Origin: Gammaproteobacteria bacterium
Lineage (GTDB): Bacteria; Pseudomonadota; Gammaproteobacteria; Steroidobacterales; UBA11654
Assembly: GCA_002717445.1 (NCBI GenBank)
Contig: PBDY01000002.1
Location: 39,186 to 103,185 of the forward strand
DNA: 64,000 bases
Reading direction: 5' to 3'
The notes under the pieces are model-generated. The model did no database searches, was not told the origin of the DNA, and saw nothing but the letters and a program-made list of their open reading frames with translations. This document shows, piece after piece, positions 9,052-41,350 of this stretch. The position numbers and the translations under genes are program-made. Position 1 is the first letter of the stretch; each line of letters starts with the position of its first letter.

Positions 9052-10488
9052 ATGAGACGAACAAAAATAATTGCAACATTTGGTCCATCAATTGCGGATC
9101 GGGAAACATTAAAAAATGTTTGTGAATACGCAGATGTCATTCGAATCAATTTAGCCCATGGAACATGGGATGAGGATGAAAAATATAATCATAAAAGAAA
9201 TATCGAGCTGATCAAAAAGACTTCCAAAGAACTTGGTAAGCCCGTTGCGATATTGGTTGATCTTAAGGGCAATAAGATCAGAATCAGTGACTTTTCTGAC
9301 CATGCGATTGACTTAGAGCACGGATCTGAAATCAGAGTTGTATTCACCAAAGAGAAAGAAACAAATAACCATGAGATCTTTATCGATGCTGAGTATTGCT
9401 TTTCACAAATAGAAGTTGGAGATCGAATCTTGCTCGATGATGGCCTTATTCAGTTGAATGTCAAAAGTATCGATGCAGACGGCAGGAACCTTAATTGTAT
9501 GGTGGATAAAGGGGGCTTGCTCAGAAGTAATAAGGGTTTTGAGGTGGAAGATAAGATAATTCATCGCTCAGGACTAGGAGAAGAAGATAAAAGAGATATC
9601 AGGAGACTGGCTGAACTGGGAATTGATTGGATTGCATTATCTTTTGTCAATGAGGCAAGCGATGTAACTCAGGCAAGAGAGGTTTTGACTGAAGCAGGAA
9701 GTACAATCAATCTGATCGCAAAGATTGAACGCCTTGAAGCACTCAAGCAACTCTTCTGGATAATCAAGGCCAGTGATGGAGTCATGGTTGCCAGAGGCGA
9801 TCTTGCCCTAGAATCAGGCCCTGGTGAGCTTACAGGCCTTCAAAAGGACATCATTAAACAAACCATTAAAGGAAAAAGAATCGCAATAACTGCAACACAG
9901 ATGATGGAATCGATGATCTCTAACCCAACGCCAACCCGAGCAGAAATGACAGATGTTTCTAATGCAGTACTAGATGGAACCGATGCCGTGATGCTCTCGG
10001 CAGAGACTGCAATTGGAAAATATCCTGTGGATACTGTAAAAGCGATGCATGAAGTTTGTGAGGGCGCAGAAACATACCAAGAATCAATTACAAAGAATGA
10101 AGAATACAAATTCTCTGAAATCAATAAAATTGATGAAGCCATTGCTATAAGCTCAATGAGCATTGCTAGAAATATGGAAATCAAAGCCATTGTTGCTCTC
10201 ACAGAGTCGGGTTCAACAGCATTGATGCTCTCTCGATATCGAACAAATATTCCAATATATGCATTTACTCGAAATGAGGATACACAAAGGAGAGTAGGTC
10301 TCTACAGAGGTGTCATTTCATACCAATACGAATTTATGGTCAATAGCTTGGCTGATGTGATTGATGATGTGAGGGATGAGCTTGTTGGTTCTTCGATACT
10401 TAATTCTGGGGATCTCATTGTGCTTACTTCTGGATCACCATTGAGAGTGAGCGGAGGAACAAATTCTCTTCGTTTGATCCATATCTGA
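9052..10488 (+). CDS. pyk: Pyruvate kinase
   Basis: 478-aa ORF with RRTKIIATFGP, KIERLEAL...SDGVMVARGDLA and AVMLSAETA blocks. Confidence 0.9.
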   Translation: MRRTKIIATFGPSIADRETLKNVCEYADVIRINLAHGTWDEDEKYNHKRNIELIKKTSKELGKPVAILVDLKGNKIRISDFSDHAIDLEHGSEIRVVFTKEKETNNHEIFIDAEYCFSQIEVGDRILLDDGLIQLNVKSIDADGRNLNCMVDKGGLLRSNKGFEVEDKIIHRSGLGEEDKRDIRRLAELGIDWIALSFVNEASDVTQAREVLTEAGSTINLIAKIERLEALKQLFWIIKASDGVMVARGDLALESGPGELTGLQKDIIKQTIKGKRIAITATQMMESMISNPTPTRAEMTDVSNAVLDGTDAVMLSAETAIGKYPVDTVKAMHEVCEGAETYQESITKNEEYKFSEINKIDEAIAISSMSIARNMEIKAIVALTESGSTALMLSRYRTNIPIYAFTRNEDTQRRVGLYRGVISYQYEFMVNSLADVIDDVRDELVGSSILNSGDLIVLTSGSPLRVSGGTNSLRLIHI

Positions 10489-10558
10489 AAAAACCCCGAA
10501 AGACCTTTTAGATAGAAAATATAAGTAATACAATCCCAGTATCTATATAGAGAAATTC

Positions 10559-12025
10559 GTGAACCAGAAAGTCGGAATCAGTGCAATTACAACCTATGTC
10601 CCTCCTTATCGAGTTGGGCTCGAGGATTGGTGTCATTGGACCAATAGCTCATGGAGTAAGATCAGTAAAATTATCGGCTCTGGCTTCAGAATGCTTGGCC
10701 CTGATGAAAGCATATATACGATGGCTGCAAATGCCGTCCTTAATCTAATTGTCGATAATGAGATTAACCCGGATGAAATCGGTTTTTTGGCACTGGGCAC
10801 TGAATCCAGTACCGATAACTCTGCTGGGACAGTCATCATTAAAGGAATGGTTAATGAAGAACTTAAAAATAGAGGCATGGATCCAATATCCAATCAATGT
10901 GAAGTTCCTGAATTTAAGCAAGCTTGCCTATCAGGCATATATGCACTAAAGAATGCTGTTCGTTACGTTAAATCTGATGCGCCTGAGAAGAAAGCGATTG
11001 TGGTCTGTTCTGATATTGCACTCTATCAGATTGGATCATCGGGGGAACCAACTCAGGGGGCGGGAGCAGTTGCAACATTAATTGAGTCAAATCCTCAGAT
11101 CGCTGAGGTTAAGACTGCATTTTCTGGAAGTTCTTCAGAATATCGTCAAATAGATTTTAGAAAGCCAATTCAGTATCGGGCTCAAAATTTAAATGGACAA
11201 TCTGCTTCAGACTTAGATTTGCCCATTTTCAACGGAAAATATTCTGCAAGTTGTTACATCGATGGAACAATTTCAGCTCTATCAAATATGAGTGAAAACA
11301 GAGGTAAGAGTCTTTCCAAATTATTAAAAGAAGCAATGGCTGTGTTCATGCATAGACCTTTTCATAAAATGCCCATCAATGCGTTTTCTATTTCATACCT
11401 TTATGCATTAGCCAATGGTGACGAAAATGACAATCAAGAACTCGATGATTTAATAGCGCAAGCCGATGTTTCTGAGGGTGAAATTAAAAAAGAGCTTCAA
11501 GAAAAGCCTGATCTCATGTCTTTTCTTCAAACGAATATCAATAAAGATTTATTTCCTCAAACAAATATGGCATTGAAGTTGATACATCAAATAAAACCTT
11601 TCAAGGATCGAGTATTGTCTAAGTTAAAATTGGGTAATGAGTTAACGAAAGAATTGGGTAACATCTATTCAGGCTCTATTTTTGCCTGGTTGGCAGCGGG
11701 TATTGAGGATTCAATGAAAAATGGCAAAACTCTCAATGGCCAAGAAGCATTGTTAATCGGTTATGGAAGTGGCGATGCTGCTGAAGTCATTCCTATTTCC
11801 TTCACTCAAAACTGCTGTGAGAATGAGAGGAATATTAAATATTCTGCCGCATTCATCGAGCCAGTTAATCTGGATCACAATCAATACATAGAACTTAGGA
11901 CAAATAAGGTTCTTGAAGGTGCGGGAGCCAAAAAATCAAAAGGTTTTATCATTAGCAAGATTGGTACACAAGAATCTACCGATTTTCAAGATGCGGGAAT
12001 TGAGTATTACGAGTATCTCAATTAG
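10559..12025 (+). CDS. Hydroxymethylglutaryl-CoA synthase family protein
   Basis: 488-aa ORF with a GTG start. Thiolase-like fold with HMGS-type catalytic residues in context: Glu (LALGTESSTDNS), Cys (EFKQACLSG) and His (MHRPFHKM), plus GNIYSGSIF and GYGSGDAAE blocks. Confidence 0.7.
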   Translation: MNQKVGISAITTYVPPYRVGLEDWCHWTNSSWSKISKIIGSGFRMLGPDESIYTMAANAVLNLIVDNEINPDEIGFLALGTESSTDNSAGTVIIKGMVNEELKNRGMDPISNQCEVPEFKQACLSGIYALKNAVRYVKSDAPEKKAIVVCSDIALYQIGSSGEPTQGAGAVATLIESNPQIAEVKTAFSGSSSEYRQIDFRKPIQYRAQNLNGQSASDLDLPIFNGKYSASCYIDGTISALSNMSENRGKSLSKLLKEAMAVFMHRPFHKMPINAFSISYLYALANGDENDNQELDDLIAQADVSEGEIKKELQEKPDLMSFLQTNINKDLFPQTNMALKLIHQIKPFKDRVLSKLKLGNELTKELGNIYSGSIFAWLAAGIEDSMKNGKTLNGQEALLIGYGSGDAAEVIPISFTQNCCENERNIKYSAAFIEPVNLDHNQYIELRTNKVLEGAGAKKSKGFIISKIGTQESTDFQDAGIEYYEYLN

Positions 12026-23235: not shown

Positions 23236-25008
23236 TTAATTTCTTTTTGAAATCGTTTCATCCACTGATGCCAAATAATCTGACAGGCTTTTTTCATTTG
23301 ATATTTGTGAGAGTTGGTCAATGATTTCATTGGTTGATTGAGACTGAGGCGAATAATCAGCAAAAGCAGTATCTCCTCGTTCAAGAGACGTTTGATCAAT
23401 GAGCGATATTATCGAGGAGAGTTCGCTGTCATTGAAAGACACGAATTGAATAATGTCCTCATCAATTGGCTCAATAGTTGCAGTCGTTTCATCACCGACC
23501 TCAATAAGCTCAATGTATTCTGAAAAGTCCCTTACTTTTTGCTCAGAGAGATCGAGTGAATTAACCCAAGCAACATAGACTCTCGGATCTTTTTCAGATG
23601 ATCCAGATATTTTGTCTTTATAAATATCAAAACCCAGCCCAACATCAAAGCTTCCAAGCGGAATATCATACCAATAAAGATCAAATTGATAACCCAAATT
23701 GAAATTCAAGAAATCAGTCGCATTTTGTGAAAATAAATATCCTGACTCAGATCCTCGATTGATTCTGCCAATTGCAAGCGTTGACTTATATAGCTGTGTG
23801 TCGTCTAGAACAAGAATTCCACCCAATGAGATTGCTAGAGAGTCTCCGTCAAGTGGGTATCCAATATTGCTGCGATCATTGTGATATGCAGACGGATATT
23901 TTTCATTTTGATAGGCACACCCATATTTACTTTGACCATCAATAATTCCACATGATGTGGAAGAAAATTCTGTAAAAAATCTGTAAGACTCAAATTTTTG
24001 GCCTCCACCAACGCTTCCCCATGTTTCTAGACCTAAGAGTCCAATAGAATTATTAAGAGATGTCCCAGATATCTGTCCATACGAAGCATATGGAGTATCG
24101 AAGATATTGCCTGATACACGATAGTCTATAGTATTGAGATCATAGACATCATCAGACCCAATTAATCCATCAATGATCTTGCTGAATCCACAGCCGCTCC
24201 CCTTATCACAAACAACTGCTGATTTAGAAAAACCTATCTCAACGTTATCTTTTGGACGTATTCCTATTCTGAGAGCCGTAAAGCGACGATCAGGCATCAG
24301 GTTTGCATTTTGAATATCGCCAAGAATAAAGGCCAAGTCCCAATTTCCAAGTAGTCCTAGATAGCGATTCTGAAATGGATCTGAAAAGTTTCTTTCAATC
24401 GATAGTCCCTTTATTGGCCTTGCGTTTGTTGAAAGAGCAGTGCTTCCCATCCAGCCTGGACCCCACCAATTTTTCTTTGACCCCAATGTCATGGAATAAT
24501 TTCCCCTGGCCAGAGAGATGTAAGACTCATCAAGTAACTCATAGGAGTCTGTTTTTTCGAATTTGAGATTTATTGCCATGTTTTCTGACAGGTATGAAGC
24601 AGAGGATGCGGCAAGTTTTTTTGTATTGACTGGATCAAAAAATGTCATGATCCTGTCAGGGTTTTTTGCAAACTTAATTTCAGCATTAGCCGAAATGCCT
24701 CCCAGTTCCTCATCTATCAGTCTTTGTTTAATTCTTTGGAGGGACAGAAGTGTTTCTGGAGAAAGGTCTTTGACATTCTCAACTTTTAAGTTGTATGCAA
24801 CATCGCCCCAAGCAATCGGCCAAGTATTTATCGGAATATTCAATAATCCCGAATCTGTAAGCATTTGCAGGTCATGCTTTGCCAATAAATCATCCGGTGT
24901 CGCCCATGGAGATGAGTTGGCATCATTTATGGGTAGACACAATAAGAGGATTAAAAAGAGAGATTCTGCACCATATTTTTTGATTAAATTTATTTGCATG
25001 TGTAGCAT
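23236..25008 (-). CDS. Outer-membrane protein, capsule-assembly Wzi-like
   Basis: 590-aa ORF with a signal peptide. The N-terminal block SPWATPDDLLAKHDLQMLTDSGLLNIPINTWPIAWGDV resembles the Wzi family as I remember it. It also has beta-barrel-like alternating segments and an acidic C-terminal extension. Confidence 0.45.
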   Translation of the reverse strand: MLHMQINLIKKYGAESLFLILLLCLPINDANSSPWATPDDLLAKHDLQMLTDSGLLNIPINTWPIAWGDVAYNLKVENVKDLSPETLLSLQRIKQRLIDEELGGISANAEIKFAKNPDRIMTFFDPVNTKKLAASSASYLSENMAINLKFEKTDSYELLDESYISLARGNYSMTLGSKKNWWGPGWMGSTALSTNARPIKGLSIERNFSDPFQNRYLGLLGNWDLAFILGDIQNANLMPDRRFTALRIGIRPKDNVEIGFSKSAVVCDKGSGCGFSKIIDGLIGSDDVYDLNTIDYRVSGNIFDTPYASYGQISGTSLNNSIGLLGLETWGSVGGGQKFESYRFFTEFSSTSCGIIDGQSKYGCAYQNEKYPSAYHNDRSNIGYPLDGDSLAISLGGILVLDDTQLYKSTLAIGRINRGSESGYLFSQNATDFLNFNLGYQFDLYWYDIPLGSFDVGLGFDIYKDKISGSSEKDPRVYVAWVNSLDLSEQKVRDFSEYIELIEVGDETTATIEPIDEDIIQFVSFNDSELSSIISLIDQTSLERGDTAFADYSPQSQSTNEIIDQLSQISNEKSLSDYLASVDETISKRN

Positions 25009-30656: not shown

Positions 30657-32153
30657 GTGCAATTTAATGACATGAGAGGATACATTGATGTCCTTAGAAA
30701 AGAAGACTTGCTGCATGATTTGAATATTCAACTCAATGTAGCCAGAGAAACATCTGAGCTTCAAGCGCTGATGAGACATTTGCATAATGAAAACGGTCCC
30801 GCACTCTTGTTAAATAATCTTGAAGGTTACAACATGCCGGATATACCTCTGCTATTTAATCCCTATGGAACTCGTGAAAGAACAGCAATGATTTTGGGAG
30901 AGAGAGATCCACTCAAAGCAAAAGCAAAGCATGCAAAAGTTTTAACCGATCAATCCAGTTGGATTGAACCAAATATTATCAGCAAAGAAGATGCGCCCTG
31001 TAAGCAAAATACAATAACAGATCGGAATATTGACCTCGCGAAGCAGCTTCCTCATGCATGGTTTGGCAAAGAGGGTCCATCGTATATTACTAATGCTGTT
31101 GTGATCACAAAGGATCCAGAAACAGGTGTTGCGAACACAGGCTGTTATCGACTGACACAATTATGGAATGCATCACATCCTCATGGGGAAATATACTCTG
31201 AAGAGGAGCAAAGAAGATGTTTATCGATCTTTGCATTCTGGAATCCCCCTGGTAATCATATCGGTCTTCACTGGGCAAAAGCGCAAGAAATGGGAAAACC
31301 ATTGGAAATTGCCATTGCATGTGTTGTTGACCCAGTGATCCAATTGGCCGGCGCAACCAGTTTGCCGTTTGGCTTGGATGAAATGAATTTTGCGGGTGGA
31401 TTAAAAGGAGAAGCGATCGATGTGGTTCCTTGCGAAACCGTTGATATTGAAGTGCCCGCAAGAGCAGAATTGATCATAGAGGGTCAATTTCTTCCAAATA
31501 GAGATATCACGATTGGTCCTCATTCTAACCCAATTGGTTACTATGATGATGAGCAATTATTTCCTCTTATGGAGGTTCAATGCATCACCCATAGAGATCA
31601 ACCTTTGTGGTATTCAACAATGGAAATGATGCCCCCATTTGATCACAACTATATGGCTTGTTTGCCAATAGAGGGTGAATTACTCAGCGATCTGCAAAGC
31701 AAGATTCCAGAGGTTAAAGATGTAGTGGTTACTCCAAACCTCAGCTATTTTGTTCAGCTTTCCGTTGACGGAGCTCAAAAGCCACATCCTGAGTTTGGAA
31801 AGTATGTTTTGCATGCAGTATGGGGTGCAAGCGGCAGATGGGGCAGAACGGCAAAAATTGCAGTTGTGATTGGACCGGATGTAAACCCTTACGATCTTAA
31901 TGAGGTTGAATGGGCAATATTGACTCGTGTGCAGCCACATACAGACACGATCATCAATCAATCCGGACAGGCATTCCTCATGGATCCATCAGCGCCAAAA
32001 GATTCCGGTCATGGAATTGCACTTCAATCCGAACAAATGGGCATTGATGCAACCATAAAGGTGTTTGAGCGTTTTCATTCATACCCTGAATACAGCAATG
32101 CTGACCAAGAAGCTGTTTCAGCCATTGCTGAGAAATTAAAGGGATCATTCTAG
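30657..32153 (+). CDS. UbiD family (prFMN-dependent) decarboxylase, substrate uncertain
   Basis: 498-aa ORF with a GTG start 7 nt after GAGGAG. It has the UbiD architecture ([24 protein letters not shown]), but it diverges from E. coli UbiD as I recall it. Confidence 0.8.
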
Positions 32154-32169: not shown

Positions 32170-33789
32170 GTGACTGTGAGCAAGAAAACAAAGCTGTTTA
32201 GAGAATTACTACTGAGCAAAAATCTTGAATTCTTGCTTGAGGCACATAATGGAATCAGTGCAAAAATTGCAGAAGAGGCAGGCTTTAAGGGTCTTTGGGC
32301 AAGCGGACTAGCAATATCTGCCCAATACGGTGTCAGAGATAGCAATGAGGCCAGCTGGACACAAGTGCTTGAAAACATAGAGTTCATGTCAGATGCCAGC
32401 AATATCCCAATCATGCTCGATGGCGATACTGGCTACGGTAACTTTAATAATGTTAGGCGTTTGATTAAAAAACTCGAACAGAGAAACATTGCGGCAGTTT
32501 GCATTGAGGATAAGCTTTACCCTAAAACCAATAGTTTCATAGATGGAGATAAGCAAGAACTTGCTGATATAGACGAATTTTGTAGTCGAATTAAGGCAGG
32601 CAAGGACGCCCAGATTGATGATGAATTCTCAATCATCACTAGGATTGAGGCTTTCATAGCCGGATGGGGATTAAGTGAGGCTTTGAAAAGAGCAGAGGCA
32701 TATCATCAAGCAGGCTCGGATGCGATTTTAATCCACAGTGCAAAATCTGAGCCAAGTGAAGTTTTGGCTTTCAAAAAAGAGTGGGGTGACACTTCGCCTG
32801 TGATTGTGGTTCCAACAAAATATTATTCCACTCCAACAGAGGTGCTGGAGCAAGAAGGATTTTCCATTGCAATTTGGGCGAACCACATGATCAGATCTTC
32901 AATCAAAGCCATGCAAGAATCCGCAGAAGAAATCTTTGCATCATCGTCAATTCTATCAACTGAAGGTGAGATTGCTTCTGTCAAAGAGGTTTTTCGGTTA
33001 CAAGGCGTTTCTGAATTAAAAGAGGCTGAAGAAAATTATTTACCAAAAAAAGAAAGGACAACAGATGCACTCATTCTTGCTGCTTCCCGAGGAGAAGCCA
33101 TGGGCAGTCTGACCGATGAACAACCCAAAACCATGATCCCACTGAAAAATAAAAGCATGTTAGAGCACATTACTGATATATATCGGAATCACGGAGTCAG
33201 TAAAATTCATGTTGTCCGAGGATACAAAAAAGAAGCAATCAATTTTCCCGAGTTGAACTATATAGACAATGATGATTTTGAGACCACTTCTGAGCTGTCT
33301 TCTTTTCATATGGCCATTGATCAGACCGATTCCGATATATATTGTTCATTTGGGGATGTTTTATTTAAGCCTTATTTGCTTCAATTAATGGATGATTTAG
33401 AAGACGATTTAGTGATTGTTGTAGATACACAATGGCAGGATTCTGTAAATAAAGACAGAGCAGCTGACTATGTAAAATGTTCCGAACCTCATTCCAGAAC
33501 TAATTATGGAAATCCAATATTTATAAAGTCTGCAGGAGAAGCACTGGATCAGGAGTCCATTCATGGAGAATGGATGGGTGTTATTAAAATTTCCTCTAAG
33601 GTTATGCCATTGATAAAAAAAGAGGTGAATCACCTATCAAAGGGAGAGGATTTTCATTCAATGAAAATGCACCATTTATTGGAACATTTATGCAAAAATA
33701 AGCAACCAATCAGAGTTGTTTACACCACGGGAAATTGGCTAGATGTCGACACACTCGAAGACGTCATAAGGGCTAATAATTTCATATGA
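32170..33789 (+). CDS. pepM: Phosphoenolpyruvate mutase fused to a C-terminal nucleotidyltransferase domain
   Basis: 539-aa ORF with a GTG start. Residues ~1-295 are near-colinear with known PEP mutases ([65 protein letters not shown]-type blocks). Residues ~300-539 form a LicC/MobA-like NTP-transferase fold ([26 protein letters not shown]). Confidence 0.9.
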
Positions 33790-34931
33790 TTTGTGCTGAA
33801 AAATTTTTAGATGAAGCATTTTATCTGGGTTTTAACGCCTATACAGGTGTTCCTTGTTCATTTTTGAAGCCTTTGATCAATGCATCAATTGAGACCGATC
33901 ATTTATCATACATTCCTGCTGTCAATGAAGGTGACGCAGTAGCTATTGCGGCTGGAATATATCTTGGTGGAGGTTTGCCTGTCGTCATGTTTCAAAATTC
34001 AGGATTGGGCAATGCCGTCAATCCATTTACATCCTTGATTCAAACCTTCGAAATACCCATTTTAATGATTGCCACACTGAGGGGTGACCCAGAGAATGAG
34101 CCTGACGAGCCTCAGCACCAACTTATGGGTAAGATCACAACCCAGATTCTTGATTTGATGGAAGTCAGTTGGTCTTGGTTTCCTGGAAACGAAGATGAAT
34201 TGACTGTAACAATGGAGACGATTAAAGATCGGATAATCGATTACCAAAAACCACATGTTTTAGTGATGAAGAAAGGTTCGGTTGAGCCGTATGAGCTTAC
34301 TGACCAATCTAAACATAAGAATGACCAAGCTTTAACCATAGATGATTGTGTGAACGAAACATCAGATTTGGTGAGTAGAGGCGATGTCATGAAGATGATC
34401 ATAGAGAAAACAACCGAAAAAGATGATTTGATCATCGCTACCACAGGTTATTCTGGAAGAGAGCTTTATGCTGCCGAGGACCGGAACAATCATTTCTATA
34501 TGGTTGGCTCAATGGGCTGTGCGATAGACATAGGATTGGGTTTATCAATGATGCAGCCGAATAAAAGAGTGATTGTCATCGATGGCGATGGGGCCCTCCT
34601 CATGCGTCTAGGTGCCATGTCAACAGTTGGTTTTATGGCTCCTGAGAATCTCACCCATATTGTTTTGGACAATGGTGTGTATGAGTCTACAGGCTCTCAA
34701 AAAACAGTTTCCTCAATACTAGATTTTAAAATGTTTGCGCATTCAAATTGTTATAGAAACTCATCGAAATTGAATTCCTTGGAAGACCTCGATTCGTTGC
34801 TTGAATCAAATAAGAAAGGACCAAACTTCATTCATTTCCCAATTAAGGCAGGAGTACCAAACAAACTTCCTCGCCCTTTAATCTCACCAAATGAGGTTGC
34901 ACAAAGATTTAGAGGAAATATAAATGATTAA
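33786..34931 (+). CDS. ppd: Phosphonopyruvate decarboxylase (ThDP-dependent)
   Basis: 381-aa ORF with an ATGA overlap onto pepM. It has ThDP enzyme blocks ([32 protein letters not shown]...[10 protein letters not shown]), and its position directly after pepM is canonical. Confidence 0.85.
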
Positions 34932-36021
34932 TCAAAAGCAAAATATTTTACTTAATCCAGGCCCAGTCAATATGTCGGATCGTGTAAAGAGACGCATGAT
35001 CAATGAGGATTTCTGTCACAGAGAGAATGAGTTCTCAAGTTTGATACAAGAGGTTAATTCTCAGCTGGCGAGTATTTATGACGATATGGAGGATTATGAA
35101 TCTGTGATCCTAACCAGTTCTGGAACTGGAGCCGTTGAAGGCATGTTGACCTCTTTTATACATGACGAGAAGTCACTGGTGATCAGCAATGGTGTTTATG
35201 GTGAGAGAATGGAAAAGATTTTACGTGTTCAGGGTAAGGCATACCAGACGATCCAATTTAACTGGCTTGATACAATTGATGTTCAATCAATTGCAGACTG
35301 TGTTGATGCCGATCGGAGCATTAAAAATCTAATCATGGTTCATCATGAAACGACCACTGGTCGTTTGAATCAATTAAGAAAAATAGGCCAATTGTGTAAG
35401 GACTATGGTCTTAATTTATACCTTGATGGTGTCAGTAGTTTTGGCGCAGAAGAAATTATGGCAAATGAAATCAACCTGAAAGCCGTTGCTGCATCTGCAA
35501 ATAAATGCCTCCATGGCGCACCCGGTCTTGCTTTTGTGATTGCACATAAGGATCAATGGGAAAAAGCTCCCAGGGAACCCTCTGGTGTGTACTTTGATTT
35601 ACATCAGTATTATGGCATGCAAAAAACAGACGGATTCTCGCCATTTACTCAAGGCACCCATTTGGTTGCCGCTCTTCATGAGGCAATTCTTGAATTCAGA
35701 GAAATGGGCGGATGGCAGGCAAGAAATACTTTATTTCAGCAAAGGGCAGAACAAATCTATGTTTGCTTGCATCAACTTGGTATTGAAACACTGATACCGA
35801 ATGAAGATTACTCATCGGTACTGAGGTCTTATCAACTGCCACAAGGCATTGGGTATCAAGATTTACATGCCTACATGAAAAGCAATGGATTTGTGATTTA
35901 TCAAGGACAAGGCAGCTTCAAGCAAAACATTTTTAGAATTTCAACAATGGGCCACATTGAAGAATCGGATATCACTTTATTGTGTGATTTGTTTAAAAAT
36001 TTTTTCAAAAACCATGGTTAA
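34924..36021 (+). CDS. 2-aminoethylphosphonate:pyruvate aminotransferase (class V aminotransferase)
   Basis: 365-aa ORF with an 8-nt overlap onto ppd. LLNPGPVNMSDRVK at the N-terminus and SANKCLHGAPGLAF (PLP-Lys context) fit the class V family, and the context completes the PepM-Ppd-transaminase route. Confidence 0.8.
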   Translation: MINQKQNILLNPGPVNMSDRVKRRMINEDFCHRENEFSSLIQEVNSQLASIYDDMEDYESVILTSSGTGAVEGMLTSFIHDEKSLVISNGVYGERMEKILRVQGKAYQTIQFNWLDTIDVQSIADCVDADRSIKNLIMVHHETTTGRLNQLRKIGQLCKDYGLNLYLDGVSSFGAEEIMANEINLKAVAASANKCLHGAPGLAFVIAHKDQWEKAPREPSGVYFDLHQYYGMQKTDGFSPFTQGTHLVAALHEAILEFREMGGWQARNTLFQQRAEQIYVCLHQLGIETLIPNEDYSSVLRSYQLPQGIGYQDLHAYMKSNGFVIYQGQGSFKQNIFRISTMGHIEESDITLLCDLFKNFFKNHG

Positions 36022-36772
36022 AGAAGCTGTAATTTTAGCAGCAGGGATGGGAAGCCGATTGGGTGGTCAAAATGATCAAAAGCCTAAAGGGCTTTTGCAG
36101 TTTGGTAGTCAATCCATTATTGAGGAGTCCATCAATAAGCTGATCAAGAATGGCATTGAGAAAATATGGATTGTCACGGGCTATCAATCTCAATACTTTA
36201 AAGAATTAACCAATCATTACAATTCAATCGTAAGCCTTGTGGATAATGCAGAGTATGATCAATCGGGAACATTGCATTCACTGTCGATGGTTGCAGACAA
36301 GGTTCGCTCTCCATTTTTATTGCTAGAGTCCGATATTATTTTTGAATACAGGGCAATTCAAACGATTCTAAATCATCAAAGTGAAAACTGTATTTTATTG
36401 AGCGGTTTCAGTGATTGTGGCGATGAGGTATTCGTTGAAGCCAATCAGGAAGAATTGGTAATGATGTCAAAAGACATGAGTGAGCTCAGCAGCCCGCCAG
36501 CTGGAGAATTGGTTGGAATTACAAAAATAGGGGAAGAATTATTTAAAATGATGATGCAGTTTCATGAAAGCGATGAAAAAAACAAATTGGCTGATTATGA
36601 AACCGATGCATTGGTTGCAGTTGCTAAAGTGATCTCAATTTCCTGCCTAAAAATAGAAGACTTAATATGGTCAGAAATAGATGATCAAGATCATCTCAAA
36701 CGTGCAAGGGAAGAAATTTATCCCATGGTTGTTGAAACTGATTTAAAATATTTTCCTAATTCATCGAAATAA
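36014..36772 (+). CDS. Stand-alone nucleotidyltransferase (LicC/MobA-like NTP-transferase fold)
   Basis: The start is set at ATG 36014, giving an 8-nt overlap (ATGGTTAA) with the transaminase stop. The N-terminus AVILAAGMGSRLG...KPKGLL is the canonical NTP-binding loop. Confidence 0.7.
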   Translation: MVKEAVILAAGMGSRLGGQNDQKPKGLLQFGSQSIIEESINKLIKNGIEKIWIVTGYQSQYFKELTNHYNSIVSLVDNAEYDQSGTLHSLSMVADKVRSPFLLLESDIIFEYRAIQTILNHQSENCILLSGFSDCGDEVFVEANQEELVMMSKDMSELSSPPAGELVGITKIGEELFKMMMQFHESDEKNKLADYETDALVAVAKVISISCLKIEDLIWSEIDDQDHLKRAREEIYPMVVETDLKYFPNSSK

Positions 36773-36784
36773 AGGCATTTATAG

Positions 36785-36982
36785 GTGACAAAAAGGATAA
36801 TAATTTTCTCAATGGTATCGGTTTGTTATGTCAATTCAGCTCATGCATACCTTGATCCCAGTACAGGAGGCATGCTGATTTCAGCAATACTGGGAATGTT
36901 TGCAACACTGGGTTTGGTGATTAAATCATATTGGTATAAATTAAAGTCACTCTTTAAAAAGAAAGAAAAAAGGATTGATTGA
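36785..36982 (+). CDS. 65-aa membrane peptide, unknown function
   Basis: GTG start 12 nt after the previous stop. A hydrophobic N-terminus ending in SAHA is followed by YLDPSTGG, a TM segment (MLISAILGMFATLGLVI) and a Lys-rich tail. It is kept because it sits inside a tightly coupled operon. Confidence 0.45.
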   Translation: MTKRIIIFSMVSVCYVNSAHAYLDPSTGGMLISAILGMFATLGLVIKSYWYKLKSLFKKKEKRID

Positions 36983-36991
36983 TCATTCGAT

Positions 36992-38122
36992 ATGACGACT
37001 TTTTTTAAAGGATATCAAGGATATCGAACATACAAAAAACTACCCAAATCTTTCAAAAAGATTGTTTTTTATTCAGAGAGTTTTCAAGACTGGCATCATC
37101 TCAAGCCTCTCTTGAATACATTACTAAATCAAGAAATAGATACCACCTATGTTGCTTCAGACGAGAAAGACCCTGGATTGCTAAAGCAGTCTCCAAATTA
37201 CAAATCGATCTTCATAGGAAAGGGTTTCTTTAGGATTTTGTTCTTTCAGTACTTAAAGGCAAAGTTGTTTATTTTAACGATGATGGATTTGAATAATTTT
37301 GAACTAAAGAGATCCATGCACTCAGTGCACTACGTATATATTTTTCATAGTTTAACCAGCACACACATGGTGGATACAGAAGAATCATTCGATCACTATG
37401 ACACCATATTATGTGCTGGCCCCCATCAAAAGAAAGAAATTGAATTGAGGGAGCAAAACAAAGATTTGAATGCCAAGAATCTTGTTTCCTATGGGTATCC
37501 GAGACTTGAAAGGTTGATCGAAATGAATGCGAAGCCGGTTACCCATAATAAAGTGATACTTTTGGCTCCCACATGGGGCGAGCAGAGCATTATCAATCTT
37601 ATAGGAATGGAGATATGCTCGATCATCATTGATCATGGTTATTCCTTGATCTTGAGACCGCATCACGAAACCCTTAAGCGCTCACCAGAGCTAATCAATG
37701 AAATAGAAAATCAGTATTCACACACTGAAAAATTTCGATTGGTCACAGAGATGGGGGATTCTCAGTCGCTCTTGCAGTCTGACTTATTAGTTTGTGATTG
37801 GTCGGGAACTGCAATTGAGTATTCACTGGGATTAGAAAAGCCCGTCATTTTCATCGACATACCCCCAAGAGTCAGGAATCCAAATTGGGAGGAGATTAAA
37901 TCTGAACCATTGGAAATGAGCATCAGAGAAAAAGTGGGTCGAATCATCTCTCCATCAGAACTTGAAGAGCTGCCGTCAACCATTGATGAATTACTCAATG
38001 ATGATCAACTCTTTTCAGATCAGATAGAATCACTGCGTGAAGAATTTGTATATAATTTAAGTCATTCAGAAAGCGTTGGTCTAGAAGAGATAAAGAAATT
38101 ACTAAAAACACTCAAAAACTAA
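36992..38122 (+). CDS. TagF/TagB-like CDP-alcohol phosphotransferase family protein
   Basis: 376-aa ORF. The blocks YIFHSLTSTH, SYGYPRLERL, ILLAPTWGE, ILRPHHE and LLVCDWSGTAIEYSLGLEKPVIFID parallel the TagF-family blocks (WHG.., GYPR.D, YAPTWR, KPHP, LITDYSS..KP) as I remember them. Confidence 0.6.
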   Translation: MTTFFKGYQGYRTYKKLPKSFKKIVFYSESFQDWHHLKPLLNTLLNQEIDTTYVASDEKDPGLLKQSPNYKSIFIGKGFFRILFFQYLKAKLFILTMMDLNNFELKRSMHSVHYVYIFHSLTSTHMVDTEESFDHYDTILCAGPHQKKEIELREQNKDLNAKNLVSYGYPRLERLIEMNAKPVTHNKVILLAPTWGEQSIINLIGMEICSIIIDHGYSLILRPHHETLKRSPELINEIENQYSHTEKFRLVTEMGDSQSLLQSDLLVCDWSGTAIEYSLGLEKPVIFIDIPPRVRNPNWEEIKSEPLEMSIREKVGRIISPSELEELPSTIDELLNDDQLFSDQIESLREEFVYNLSHSESVGLEEIKKLLKTLKN

Positions 38123-39894
38123 ATTATTCTTCAGCATGGTTCCTCTGGTATGGCTTTTTTAATGGGCTTATAGCCTTTCTCATTGGAATTCAGTATCTCC
38201 TTTTTTTTCCTTCAAGCACGACATTGCTTTCTGCAAGCTATGTTCTGTTTGCAACCTTGACTCATTTTATATCAATACATTTTCTACCCCTTCTCTTGCT
38301 CTCTTTGGTGCATCGGATTGCAGGCATGAAAAAATTCCTTATCCTCTTAGCAATAATTTACGCATCAACCATTAATACACTGATTGTCATGGATGCAAAC
38401 TTCTTTGCAGTAAACCGATTTCACATGAGTCTTATGACTGCGATCCTTTTTGACAGTGAAACTTATCTTTTTTCAATCCTCCAGTTCATCATTATGGTCG
38501 TCTTTCATTATTTTCTTGGTAATGAAATCGGGAAGTCTCTGGAAAGGAGAAGAAATAAGTCTTTTATTGGTGTTTCTCTCGCAGTAGCCACCATGAGTGC
38601 ATGGATTTATGTCCAAGGTGTCCACATTTGGGCCGATGCAAGCTATCAATCTTCCATCACCACTTTTACGCGATATTTGCCATTGTTCAGACCTATTCAC
38701 GCCAAAAGAGATCTTGCTAGATTGGGTTTAATCGATTCGGATCAATTGAGGAAACAGAATTTGTCTAAGAAAACAATGGATTCTGAGTTACTTTATCCAA
38801 AGAATGAGCTGCTTTGTCGCAGCGATACACAATCAGAAAATGTTTTGGTTATTTTAATCGATGCTTTGCGTCCTGAGATGATCAATGGTGAGATCATGCC
38901 CAATACTGCAAAACTTTTTTCTGAAAGCATCAGTTTTGATAATCACTACTCAGGCGGAACCTCCTCAAGAATGGGTATGTTTTCACTCTTTTATGGTTTG
39001 CCCTCTACATATTGGAGAGTGTTTCATGACAATCTAAAACCCGCATTAATGATTACAAAGTTTGATGAGAGCAATTATGACATACACGCCATCAGTTCAT
39101 CGGGCTTGGGAAGTCCTGCAGTGCTTGATAGGACCGCCTTTGCAGGCATTTCCAGTATCAACCTCAGACCACTTGGTGCTTCCGAAAAAGCCAGCCTAAA
39201 ATTGGTGACAAATGGTTGGGTAGAGACAATCAAGCAAAACCAAGATCCTAAATTCTTCACATTGCTTCATTATGACCCTCCAATCGATGAAGCCAACCCA
39301 AGTGAATCTTTAAATATCGCCAACAAATTTTCAAGAAAGAATGATACATCTCACAATCTTGAGGTCTCAAGATATATACAGTCCATTCGTGATGTGGATA
39401 TGGAAATTGGAAGGTTAAGCAATGTTTTACGAGAAAGGGATATGCTCAAAGACACCATTGTAATTCTAACCTCAGACCACGGTTATGAGCTCGATGATTA
39501 TCAAACCAATTATTATGGCCATTCCAGTAATTATAGTCCCGCCCAAACCAAGGTTCCTTTAAAAATCATTTGGCCAAACAGGGATTCTCAGAAATATTCT
39601 TTTCGATCATCGCACCATGATTTTGCACCAACTTTATTAAAGGAAGTATTGGGTTGTACAAACAGCTACTCTGATTACAGCACTGGCAATAATTTATTTC
39701 AGCAAAAGCCTTGGAAATATTTGATTGCCGGGAGTTATGATTCATTCGCTGTCTTGACGCCTGAAAAAGTCATCATATCCTATGGAAGTTATTTTGAGGT
39801 CAGAGATAAAAATTACAATCTCTCTGAAATTGAAGGCAAGGATTTGAAAGACATGGAGGATGCAATATCCAATATGAGTGAGTATTACAAATAA
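38098..39894 (+). CDS. YejM/PbgA(LapC)-like inner-membrane protein with periplasmic alkaline-phosphatase-superfamily domain
   Basis: Colinear with E. coli YejM from memory (VHIWADASYQ, FSLFYGLPSTYW). It also carries an ILTSDHGYE metal motif. The reading frame is open from 38056 and encodes the conserved first TM (SAWFLWYGFFNGLIAFLIGIQYLLFF) upstream of the first canonical start (TTG 38224). The start is provisionally placed at ATT 38098, and confidence in that start is only about 0.4. Confidence 0.7.
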   Translation: MTKNTQKLNYSSAWFLWYGFFNGLIAFLIGIQYLLFFPSSTTLLSASYVLFATLTHFISIHFLPLLLLSLVHRIAGMKKFLILLAIIYASTINTLIVMDANFFAVNRFHMSLMTAILFDSETYLFSILQFIIMVVFHYFLGNEIGKSLERRRNKSFIGVSLAVATMSAWIYVQGVHIWADASYQSSITTFTRYLPLFRPIHAKRDLARLGLIDSDQLRKQNLSKKTMDSELLYPKNELLCRSDTQSENVLVILIDALRPEMINGEIMPNTAKLFSESISFDNHYSGGTSSRMGMFSLFYGLPSTYWRVFHDNLKPALMITKFDESNYDIHAISSSGLGSPAVLDRTAFAGISSINLRPLGASEKASLKLVTNGWVETIKQNQDPKFFTLLHYDPPIDEANPSESLNIANKFSRKNDTSHNLEVSRYIQSIRDVDMEIGRLSNVLRERDMLKDTIVILTSDHGYELDDYQTNYYGHSSNYSPAQTKVPLKIIWPNRDSQKYSFRSSHHDFAPTLLKEVLGCTNSYSDYSTGNNLFQQKPWKYLIAGSYDSFAVLTPEKVIISYGSYFEVRDKNYNLSEIEGKDLKDMEDAISNMSEYYK

Positions 39895-41339
39895 TGTCAA
39901 TATTGATCAGAATTTATCTGCTGATTTTGATATTTTCTCATCAAGTACTGGGGCAGGAACAATCTCTCGATCAGAATCATTTTGACCAGATCACATTTGA
40001 TCAAGACACACCTCTGATCCAAAAGTGGGTGACGTGTTATCCAGATTGCTCATCCCAAAATAAAAACTCTTTTGAGATCAATACTGATTTCAGAACAGTC
40101 TTAAAAATCATGAATAGCAAAGGAGATTCTCACAATGACTATGTGATGACATCAAGAAAAGTAGGCGATGACTTTAAGATTTCGTACGCCCGAAGCAATT
40201 ATGAAGATGGGATATCAGAAGTGATTTTCACAACTGACACAAAGTTTGGTTTTTTGGAGCTAACGGTTCGATCTGATGCTGATATTCAGATTGAAATCAA
40301 CCCAAAGAATTTATTAAAAGAAGGCGATATCTATGGAATGGGCGGTATCTACAATGGCACATGGCTAGTAAGGGTTGATGATCGTGGCTCTGAAAACCTA
40401 TCCAATTTGAGTCAAGCTATTACTCAGGAAGGTTCATGGATTGGTGTTCGAACAAGATTCTGGTCTTTCCTTGTTTCCCCTAGAAATAATGAAGCATTGG
40501 TCAATAAAATCAATGAATCAGAGCTGGGATTAAGATTTAGATCAACTGCTGTAGATGGCTTGCATCGGTTTGTCTTGTATTTTGGCCCTCTGAGTACAAA
40601 ACAGTTTGTAGGCTCAGAGTCAGAACTAAGGAAACTTATGTACGCTGCACTTTGGGACTGGTTGAGACAATTATGCTTCTTTATTGAGTGGATCTTCATT
40701 TGGCTTTTAGAATTTTCTGGAAATGCAGGTTTAGCAATTCTTCTGCTTGCATGCGTACTAAAAGTCATCATTTATCCTCTCAATCGAATTGCTGAAAAAT
40801 GGCAGGACGATGTGAATGTTATTCACTCTATGCTGCAACCTAAGATCAATGAAATAAAATGCAATTTCTCAGGCGAAGAGGCCAATCACAGAATCATGAA
40901 ACTGTATAAAGATAAAAACATAAGTCCTTTTTACTCAATAAAGAGTTTTTTTGGTTTTCTGATACAGATACCAATATTCATAGCGGTCTTTGATGTATTG
41001 GGAGAATCAATATATCTATTGGGAGAGCCTTTTGTTTTTATTAATGACCTAAGCAAGCCTGATCAATGGGCAATGTTGCCATTCTTTATTCCTTATTTTG
41101 GGTCTTCAATGAATCTTTTACCATTTTGCATGATGATCATCAGCATTTTGAGCGCATATCTTTATACAGATAAAAATTTAAACAAAAATTTATTAAGCAA
41201 CCAAAAAAGAAAATTATATTTGATGTCTTTCTTATTTTTTGTCTTGCTGTTCACTTTTCCATCCGGGATGGTGCTTTATTGGACAACTTCGAATTTCCTT
41301 CATTTGATGCAAATGCAAATAAAAAAGGCTCTTCATTGA
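39894..41339 (+). CDS. YidC/Oxa1 family membrane protein insertase homologue
   Basis: 481-aa ORF with a TAATG junction to the upstream gene. It has an N-terminal anchor/signal, a shortened P1-like domain (WIGVRTRFWSFLVSP; LYFGPL) and a core with GNAGLAILLLACVLKVIIYPL, MLQPKINEIK, MKLYKDKNISPF, LIQIPIFIAVF and FPSGMVLYWTTSN. Confidence 0.75.
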   Translation: MSILIRIYLLILIFSHQVLGQEQSLDQNHFDQITFDQDTPLIQKWVTCYPDCSSQNKNSFEINTDFRTVLKIMNSKGDSHNDYVMTSRKVGDDFKISYARSNYEDGISEVIFTTDTKFGFLELTVRSDADIQIEINPKNLLKEGDIYGMGGIYNGTWLVRVDDRGSENLSNLSQAITQEGSWIGVRTRFWSFLVSPRNNEALVNKINESELGLRFRSTAVDGLHRFVLYFGPLSTKQFVGSESELRKLMYAALWDWLRQLCFFIEWIFIWLLEFSGNAGLAILLLACVLKVIIYPLNRIAEKWQDDVNVIHSMLQPKINEIKCNFSGEEANHRIMKLYKDKNISPFYSIKSFFGFLIQIPIFIAVFDVLGESIYLLGEPFVFINDLSKPDQWAMLPFFIPYFGSSMNLLPFCMMIISILSAYLYTDKNLNKNLLSNQKRKLYLMSFLFFVLLFTFPSGMVLYWTTSNFLHLMQMQIKKALH

Positions 41340-41350
41340 AGAGCCTTTTT
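41321..41350. terminator. Bidirectional rho-independent terminator
   Basis: AAAAAA, then GGCTCTT (41327-41333), loop CATTG, AAGAGCC (41339-41345), then TTTTT. It sits between the convergent yidC-like gene and the 41366-41971 gene, and the yidC-like stop codon lies in the hairpin. Confidence 0.65.

Follow-up and report, generated by a model that had tools for sequence, protein, structure and literature searches.

In Gram-negative bacteria, YidC is usually regarded as a single-copy, essential and general membrane protein insertase. Oxa1-family paralogues that are dedicated to one or a few clients are found in eukaryotic organelles, namely Cox18/Oxa2 (for Cox2) and Alb4, and these have no operon linkage and no P1 domain. 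A survey of 589 bacterial species found two YidC copies in Gram-positives only (PMC2706819), and an accessory YidC in Gammaproteobacteria is therefore unusual. The Gram-positive pairs, SpoIIIJ/YidC2 in Bacillus and YidC1/YidC2 in Streptococcus, give one bacterium two YidCs that are partly specialised (PMC2706819, PMC8595059). Here, we analyze a YidC-like protein of an uncultured, AT-rich gammaproteobacterium (39% GC) that is common in ocean metagenomes, Tara included. Its gene lies in a chromosomal stretch of 64,000 nt from contig PBDY01000002.1, hereafter the window, which is numbered from its first letter. The evidence suggests that this divergent extra YidC belongs, as a fixed and translationally coupled component, to a widespread cassette that makes 2-aminoethylphosphonate (AEP) and would attach it to the cell envelope, and that it has a specialised, so far undescribed job.

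The comparison is based on 87 related loci, which are seven metagenome contigs (L001-L007) and 80 species-representative genomes (L008-L087), giving 88 sequences with the window. The 80 genomes, all of them metagenome-assembled genomes (MAGs) or single-amplified genomes, were examined out of 311 sites at which a scan of 185,579 species genomes found YidC-like relatives. At NCBI they are labelled Woeseia/Woeseiaceae, Steroidobacteraceae, Chromatiales and Xanthomonadales, and a few of them Thermodesulfobacteriota, Fibrobacterota and 'delta'. Counts for the cassette cover YidC-like relatives at down to 31% identity to the window protein, and the invariance of YidC-like residues was scored on 30 family members that are 31-80% identical to it.

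A divergent member of the YidC/Oxa1/Alb3 superfamily

By sequence and fold, the protein belongs to the YidC/Oxa1/Alb3 superfamily. It matches the Pfam family PF02096 (60KD_IMP) over residues 279-476 with E=5e-30 (105.1 bits against a cut-off of 35) and TIGR03592 (yidC_oxa1_cterm) with 108.8 bits against a cut-off of 84.3. BLASTP aligns it to E. coli K-12 YidC with 27% identity across 327 residues (E=2e-25). The initial annotation, made from the letters of the DNA, described a 481-aa open reading frame with five YidC core blocks, and each of these blocks is found in the translation. In a homologue search, more than 120 proteins were recovered, with lengths of about 415-515 aa and identities down to 33%.

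The central groove of the superfamily carries a positive charge (R366 in E. coli, R72 in B. halodurans). In the window protein this charge is supplied by K290, which BLASTP aligns with R366, and the replacement of Arg by Lys, seen at the outset, is invariant in 30/30 family members. K290 belongs to the conserved hydrophilic groove together with Q358 and N467. Two acidic residues, D367 and E371, are invariant and specific to the family; they lie at the periplasmic end of transmembrane segment 3 (TM3), where E. coli has Tyr and Gly. About 60 positions, groove and core residues included, are invariant among members down to about 30% identity. Conservation is 84% in TM3 and 65% in the C1 hairpin, compared with 40% in the P1-like domain.

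An AlphaFold2 model built from the alignment of the 30 family members (pLDDT 82.8, pTM 0.78) has an N-terminal hydrophobic helix, a beta-rich domain, the YidC helical core and a two-helix cytoplasmic hairpin. The top Foldseek match in the PDB is E. coli YidC 6AL2 (E=9.5e-19, TM-score 0.63), and B. halodurans YidC 3WO6/3WO7 is matched as well. The model also matches the isolated E. coli P1 domain, 3BLC/3BS6, with a TM-score of about 0.5 relative to the target. Residues ~28-232 are therefore read as a shortened P1-like beta-sandwich, which bears out the early description of a short and divergent P1-like domain. At ~205 residues, the domain is about one third below full P1 size, and residues 1-269 have no match in Pfam, PF14849 (YidC_periplas) included, even at E=10. 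A pair of cysteines, Cys48 and Cys52, is conserved within it.

Compared to E. coli-type YidC (6AL2, 3WVF; PRK01318 equivalogs), the cassette protein has the same five-helix core, charged groove, C1 coiled-coil hairpin, short C-tail and N-terminal periplasmic beta-sandwich. It differs in its P1 (~205 residues against ~320) and in its genomic position, a biosynthetic operon and not the housekeeping cluster. The E. coli type also has an uncleaved TM1 anchor, whereas the N-termini of the cassette family finish in AxA-like sites and the protein probably has a cleavable signal peptide in place of TM1. The Gram-positive YidC pairs are lipoproteins without P1, one of them with a long ribosome-binding tail, and are encoded outside metabolite or envelope biosynthetic operons. 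No lipobox Cys was found at the N-termini of the family and the ~205-residue sandwich is present; as judged from these features, the protein is not of the Gram-positive lipoprotein type.

Separation from the housekeeping YidC

All 17 NCBIfam YidC equivalog models score the protein at 101.5 bits or less against cut-offs of 282-1094, and the best of them is NF002356 (101.5 against 460). The reference set consisted of six canonical YidCs, taken from the Alpha-, Beta- and Gammaproteobacteria and the Acidithiobacillia. The core identity between the family and these six is 29% (23-37%), whereas the six share 55% (45-74%) among themselves. In a neighbour-joining tree of 239 core columns, drawn without canonical YidCs from the host lineages, the six split from every family member in 200/200 bootstraps, which supplies the phylogeny that had been proposed as a check. 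A gammaproteobacterial orthologue is expected beside E. coli, Pasteurella and Aeromonas, but the window protein falls outside the whole proteobacterial clade and is therefore not an orthologue.

The usual cluster named in the initial annotation, rpmH-rnpA-yidD-yidC-mnmE, is indeed present in E. coli and Pasteurella; in Acidithiobacillus it lacks mnmE. RpmH, RnpA, YidD and MnmE were found within about 10 kb of the YidC-like gene in 0/88 sequences. None of four housekeeping features (an equivalog score above cut-off, a PF14849 P1 domain, the genomic context and a place in the canonical clade) is seen in the protein. Taken together, its scores, context and tree position place the YidC-like protein outside the orthologous group of housekeeping proteobacterial YidCs. 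From the phylogeny, the context and the patchy distribution, we infer that cassette-bearing genomes have a separate housekeeping yidC. The non-orthology implied at first is upheld by equivalogs, context and tree, and for a second yidC in the same genome the evidence is indirect but consistent.

A search of representative proteins returned a continuum of non-canonical YidC relatives, 275 of them at E<1e-30. A further group consists of YidC-like proteins of 545-566 aa with signal peptides, no more than weak PF14849 matches and equivalog scores that are all below cut-off (P0231, P0265, P0278, P0285). These longer relatives (540-566 aa, including P0278, P0285 and P0231) were considered as the housekeeping forms of the hosts and were ruled out by their signal peptides, weak PF14849 matches, sub-threshold equivalog scores and position outside the canonical clade. 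A plasmid-borne origin is not supported either, as a tblastn search of PLSDB gave only canonical yidC, at ~25% identity, on mislabelled chromosomes. The composition of the operon (38% GC, against 39% for the window) gives no sign of recent horizontal transfer.

A conserved phosphonate cassette

The cassette was scored on seven genes: a phosphoenolpyruvate (PEP) mutase-nucleotidyltransferase fusion, a phosphonopyruvate decarboxylase (Ppd), an AEP aminotransferase, a second nucleotidyltransferase, and TagF-like, YejM-like and YidC-like genes (Table 1). All seven are present in 45/80 loci and colinear in 43. Independent metagenome contigs have the identical gene order at 34-43% identity. The YejM-like gene occurs in 76/80 genomes; in 75 of these it immediately precedes the YidC-like gene, and in the remaining one it lies downstream. 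Of the 65 loci whose DNA reaches far enough upstream, 63 have the TagF-like gene. The YidC-like gene had been described as the last of a phosphonate operon, and its terminal, coupled position is conserved across the examined genomes.

In the window, the YidC-like start overlaps the stop of the YejM-like gene in the sequence TAATG, just as first reported. An overlap is found in 74/83 sequences and is either 1 nt (TAATG/TGATG) or 4 nt (ATGA/GTGA). Translational coupling is therefore a conserved property and not an accident of the window. The association between this YidC and the cassette is conserved, widespread and stronger than first stated, and it is apparently undescribed. Surveys of phosphonate clusters and of marine phosphonate producers make no mention of YidC, and a full-text literature search for YidC with phosphonate or with Gram-negative gene clusters returned nothing relevant. 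Such a distinct accessory clade, linked to a single biosynthetic module across hundreds of uncultured species and thousands of gene clusters from metagenomes, departs from the usual picture of YidC, and an abundant Tara Oceans gammaproteobacterium is among its carriers.

Several variants of the cassette show which parts travel together. In L020, L023, L030 and L094 there is no YejM-like gene. The YidC-like gene comes directly after the TagF-like gene, and in L094 the two overlap. Downstream, these variants have an MFS_1 transporter gene, which in L030 is start/stop coupled to the YidC-like gene. The YejM-less variants keep every invariant of the YidC-like family, including W45, C48, C52, G148, G150, Y153, W182, G184, R186, R188 and W190 in the P1-like domain, W303, Q304, N308 and E328 in the C1 hairpin, and K290, Q358, D367 and E371 in the groove. 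The YejM-like enzyme is thus a frequent, non-essential partner, and it is a microprotein and the TagF-like enzyme that stay constant.

In a second kind of variant (L051, L054, L073), the microprotein and the TagF-like, YejM-like and YidC-like genes form a four-gene module with no pepM in the 6-7 kb upstream. In L005, unrelated genes replace the AEP genes next to a YidC-like protein identical to that of L004; the difference could be a strain variant or an assembly chimera. The four-gene module may serve more than one activated head group, or pepM may be elsewhere in these genomes.

The microprotein

A small gene, absent from the initial annotation, lies between the second nucleotidyltransferase gene and the TagF-like gene. 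It encodes a microprotein whose core, AYLDPSTGsMilSAIvGlFATlGLaiKTYWYKLKslF, is conserved above every cassette enzyme, with Y13, L14, D15, P16 and T18 invariant. It is found in 71/88 sequences, and most of the others have no DNA upstream of the TagF-like gene. In the window clade, the conserved start is the GTG at 36785, with which the protein has a normal signal peptide (TKR-IIIFSMVSVCYV-NSAHA), whereas the ATG at 36812 chosen by the gene caller cuts the signal peptide off. The microprotein matches no Pfam family, and it is seemingly unannotated in the NCBI MAG, where the numbering MBI32379-MBI32387 leaves no accession for it. A profile search found at least 6902 metagenomic clusters at E<=1e-3, and 3/3 randomly chosen hits on long contigs lie in a cassette with a YidC-like gene.

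M13 procoat is the classical YidC-only substrate, and it shares with Pf3 coat a layout of signal, short acidic loop, transmembrane helix and basic tail. The microprotein likewise has a signal peptide, a very short acidic periplasmic loop, one helix and a basic cytoplasmic tail. By this analogy, it is a candidate client of the YidC-like protein.

The YejM-like enzyme

The product of the gene upstream of the YidC-like gene aligns end to end with YejM 5I5H, its best PDB match (E=1.5e-45). E. coli YejM/LapC/PbgA (5I5H, 6XLP) has the same DUF3413 transmembrane domain and periplasmic sulfatase fold, but reads AGRG at the DHG position, where the cassette paralogue keeps D-H-G as well as Ser-Ser. Among 77 homologues in L003-L087, D269 and D474-H475-G476 are each present in 77/77 and H520 in 76/77, and the nucleophile position S303/S304 is Ser in 75 and 72 of 77, respectively. 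In the alkaline-phosphatase superfamily (LtaS, EptA, OpgB), metal and nucleophile motifs of this kind mark an active enzyme. Retention of the D, S-S, D-H-G and H motifs predicts that the paralogue is active in the periplasm as a phospho- or phosphono-transferase or hydrolase and is not an LpxC-regulating lipopolysaccharide (LPS) sensor.

The label 'YejM-like' in the initial annotation was sound as to family; it needed correction because the paralogue keeps the catalytic motifs that YejM lacks and because the annotated start is probably wrong. Starts at TTG 38224 or at the gene caller's ATG 38389 (556 and 501 aa) drop conserved N-terminal coding sequence with transmembrane segments. The conserved sequence WFLWYGFFNG precedes both, in a part that offers no ATG, GTG or TTG. 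Within 38056-38224, an ATT at 38098, after the purine-rich stretch AGAAGAGATAAAGAA, is conserved in seven genomes of the clade and is replaced by ATG in remoter relatives. This ATT is likely to be a non-canonical start, overlapping the end of the TagF-like gene by 25 nt. The microprotein, the ATT start of the YejM paralogue and its intact active site are three unannotated or misannotated parts that surveys of phosphonate clusters have left undiscussed.

Possible functions of the YidC-like protein

The reading that we favor, though tentatively, is that the accessory YidC/Oxa1 member acts as insertase and assembly partner of its own four-gene membrane module. The module comprises the YidC-like protein and three partners: the procoat-like microprotein, the TagF/TarL-like transferase and the YejM paralogue with its intact catalytic motifs. 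In most genomes, it lies behind the genes for making AEP and activating it with cytidine monophosphate (CMP), and the module would most likely transfer AEP or an AEP-bearing unit onto a component of the Gram-negative envelope. The groove of the YidC-like protein (K290, Q358, N467) would take up the microprotein's short acidic loop (YLDPSTG) together with its helix, in the way that canonical YidC handles M13 procoat or Pf3 coat. The YidC-like protein would also help to fold the co-translated YejM-like enzyme and may remain associated with it.

Several points weigh against this proposal. Both the client relation and complex formation are hypothetical. A housekeeping YidC, if present, should already insert such proteins, and the need for a dedicated insertase is left unexplained. 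The YejM-like enzyme cannot be an essential client, because the YidC-like gene and all of its invariants persist in the YejM-less variants. A dedicated insertase for the membrane enzymes of the operon is one of two roles first suggested, and it is the YejM-specific version of it that these variants weaken. Finally, the cassette has no recognisable flippase, even though one of its two enzymes should work on the cytoplasmic face of the membrane and the other on the periplasmic face, and this favors a role in transport.

The other role first suggested, a hydrophilic groove acting on the amphipathic product, has been retained as well and is a serious possibility, if a somewhat less probable one. 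Here, the YidC-like protein, either by itself or with its groove occupied by the microprotein, would be the transbilayer step that scrambles or translocates the polar, AEP-bearing head group of an intermediate anchored in the membrane. This intermediate would be made on the cytoplasmic side by the TagF-like enzyme and used on the periplasmic side by the YejM-like enzyme. We consider this role as conduit or scramblase nearly as plausible as that of insertase. The topology of the pathway demands a crossing step: TagF-family enzymes use nucleotide-activated donors in the cytoplasm, and the catalytic domain of the YejM-like protein is periplasmic and retains the D/S/DHG/H motifs seen in active transferases of the LtaS/EptA type. 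No ABC, Wzx/MOP or MFS exporter is encoded in the main cassette, and the YidC-like protein is the only polytopic protein available besides the transferase itself. In functional analogy only, the flippases LtaA, Wzx, TacF and TagGH, whose folds are unrelated, fill the slot, empty here, between a cytoplasmic transferase and an extracytoplasmic one of the sulfatase fold. The invariant acidic residues at the periplasmic end of TM3 also speak for a conduit. The YejM-less variants, in which every invariant is kept, fit this role at least as well, and modules without an upstream pepM are what is expected of a generic head-group transfer unit. In addition, E. coli YidC and other Oxa1-family insertases have been shown to scramble glycerophospholipids in vitro and in simulations (PMC11047089).

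The case for a conduit is nevertheless purely inferential, and the identity of the lipid or carrier intermediate is a supposition. The crossing could be done by host flippases or by the DUF3413 domain of the YejM-like protein, and the MFS gene near the YejM-less variants could encode the real exporter there. Scrambling does not need the C1 hairpin or the whole insertase architecture, yet both have been retained. To our knowledge, no YidC-family protein is a pathway-specific flippase, and only generic scrambling has been shown.

A more specific version, of slightly lower probability again, is that the YidC-like protein works together with the microprotein as a dedicated translocation device and not as a general insertase. 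Through its groove, a polar group with the phosphonate would cross the inner membrane. The group could be borne on a lipid, or on the invariant Thr/Ser of the YLDPSTG loop of the microprotein after modification by the cytoplasmic TagF-like enzyme, and the active YejM paralogue would then pass it to LPS, capsule or surface proteins. If true, it would be the first case in which the Oxa1 fold serves a specific pathway to export a metabolite or a modified loop, and it would provide a molecular route to protein-associated phosphonates. Protein-associated phosphonates are a large share of marine organic phosphorus (bioRxiv 10.1101/2020.11.04.368217).

The choice between the favored insertase role and transport is a testable question of whether the Oxa1 fold has been specialised for one small client or for the translocation of a lipid or head group, an activity for which in vitro scrambling lacks a physiological link. 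It also bears on how AEP, a major marine phosphonate, reaches the outer side of the inner membrane.

It is very improbable that the gene is instead the sole yidC of these genomes, moved beside the phosphonate genes and diverged. In favor of such a move, no second yidC occurs in the roughly 84 kb that are readable (the window and 10 kb on each side), and the intact groove, core and C1 hairpin make a general insertase activity conceivable. Against such a move are the position of the protein outside the alpha/beta/gamma/Acidithiobacillia clade in every bootstrap, its low core identity to the canonical six, its failure at every equivalog cut-off and its linkage to the cassette rather than to rnpA, yidD or mnmE. 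A further point against it is the finding of relatives at 311 sites among the 185,579 species genomes. Furthermore, the labels of the 80 genomes range from Woeseiaceae, Steroidobacteraceae and Chromatiales to Thermodesulfobacteriota and Fibrobacterota, and the gene is almost always with the same cassette, which is the pattern of an accessory, horizontally moving unit. A decaying or non-functional duplicate that is passively carried is refuted by the conservation pattern: the reading frame is intact, the roughly 60 invariant positions and the translational coupling are maintained, and thousands of cassette copies exist in the environment.

Genes of the locus and their neighbours

The features of the locus are listed in Table 1.

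Table 1. Features of the AEP cassette and its immediate surroundings in the window, in order of position.
Feature	Position	Strand	Basis and remarks
UbiD-family decarboxylase	30657..32153	+	PF01977; ends 16 nt before pepM
PEP mutase-MobA-like nucleotidyltransferase fusion (Ppm-PntC type)	32170..33789	+	TIGR02320 380 bits (cut-off 319.6); PF13714, PF12804
Phosphonopyruvate decarboxylase (Ppd)	33786..34931	+	TIGR03297 402 bits (cut-off 312.5)
AEP aminotransferase (PhnW/AepZ type)	34924..36021	+	TIGR03301 346.9 bits, slightly below the cut-off of 360.8
Second, stand-alone nucleotidyltransferase (IspD/LicC-like)	36014..36772	+	PF12804, PF00483; start ATG 36014 by the gene caller
Microprotein, 65 aa from GTG 36785	36785..36982	+	Signal peptide, AHA/YLDPSTGG junction, one transmembrane helix, basic tail (KSYWYKLKSLFKKK)
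TagF/TarL-family enzyme, distant (CDP-glycerol glycerophosphotransferase family)	36992..38122	+	PF04464 E=3e-10
YejM/LapC paralogue	38098..39894	+	DUF3413 transmembrane domain and periplasmic sulfatase-fold domain; proposed start ATT 38098
YidC-like protein, 481 aa	39894..41339	+	Signal-peptide-like N-terminus 1-20; P1-like beta-sandwich ~28-232; five-helix core; C1 hairpin 294-345; short C-tail
Hairpin, 13 bp, G+C-containing, flanking T/A runs	41322..41350	.	Between convergent genes; loop holds the TGA stop of the YidC-like gene

The PEP mutase has the Ppm-specific motif EDKxxxxxNS at residue 113. Fusions of Ppm with PF12804 are of the CMP-AEP-forming PntC type according to Rice et al. (PMC6697681), and the fusion protein of the window makes the C-P bond and probably forms CMP-AEP. 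The protein identical to the aminotransferase in NCBI, MBI32380.1, is named 2-aminoethylphosphonate aminotransferase. The second nucleotidyltransferase is conserved in 55/80 loci.

The TagF-like protein has the same family name in NCBI and JGI, and the profile of its family matches TarL 8VA1 marginally (E=0.11) at the D-[YW]-S region. It is presumed to be a phospho- or phosphono-transferase of the cytoplasmic face. Some members of its JGI cluster (P0413) are named 'YidC/Oxa1 family membrane protein insertase', and these are presumably misnamed.

The operon terminator that the initial annotation placed after the YidC-like gene corresponds to the hairpin of Table 1; the structure is present, and it is probably a bidirectional terminator of two convergent genes. 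At the other end of the operon, only the window clade and the Woeseia-labelled MAGs (L007-L011, L014, L016, L017) have a UbiD-family gene upstream of pepM. This gene may be co-transcribed in the lineage of the window only, and it is outside the conserved cassette.

The local synteny of the window is common to MAGs labelled Woeseia, and several aminoacyl-tRNA synthetase genes lie in it. A homologue of Wzi, the capsule assembly lectin, is encoded at 23236-25008 on the minus strand, and the LptF/LptG and BamD genes lie just past the right end of the window. Because of these genes, the host is taken to be a diderm with LPS machinery and probably a capsule, both of which are candidate AEP acceptors.

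Other neighbourhoods were seen among the relatives. In L003, L006, L094 and L097, genes like the large and small subunits of aconitase and a second gene of the PEP-mutase/isocitrate-lyase family lie upstream of pepM, and many soil and sediment members have this neighbourhood; L003 and L006 also have a gene for a PhyH-family dioxygenase there. In L083, a complete Xanthomonadales MAG chromosome (OY760942.1), a YidC-like relative at 9857-11278 is outside any phosphonate cassette. At the aligned columns, its protein has neither the groove Lys nor several of the family invariants, and its gene is flanked by a PEMT/ICMT-like methyltransferase gene on one side and by a DUF6165 gene and then a GT2 glycosyltransferase gene on the other.

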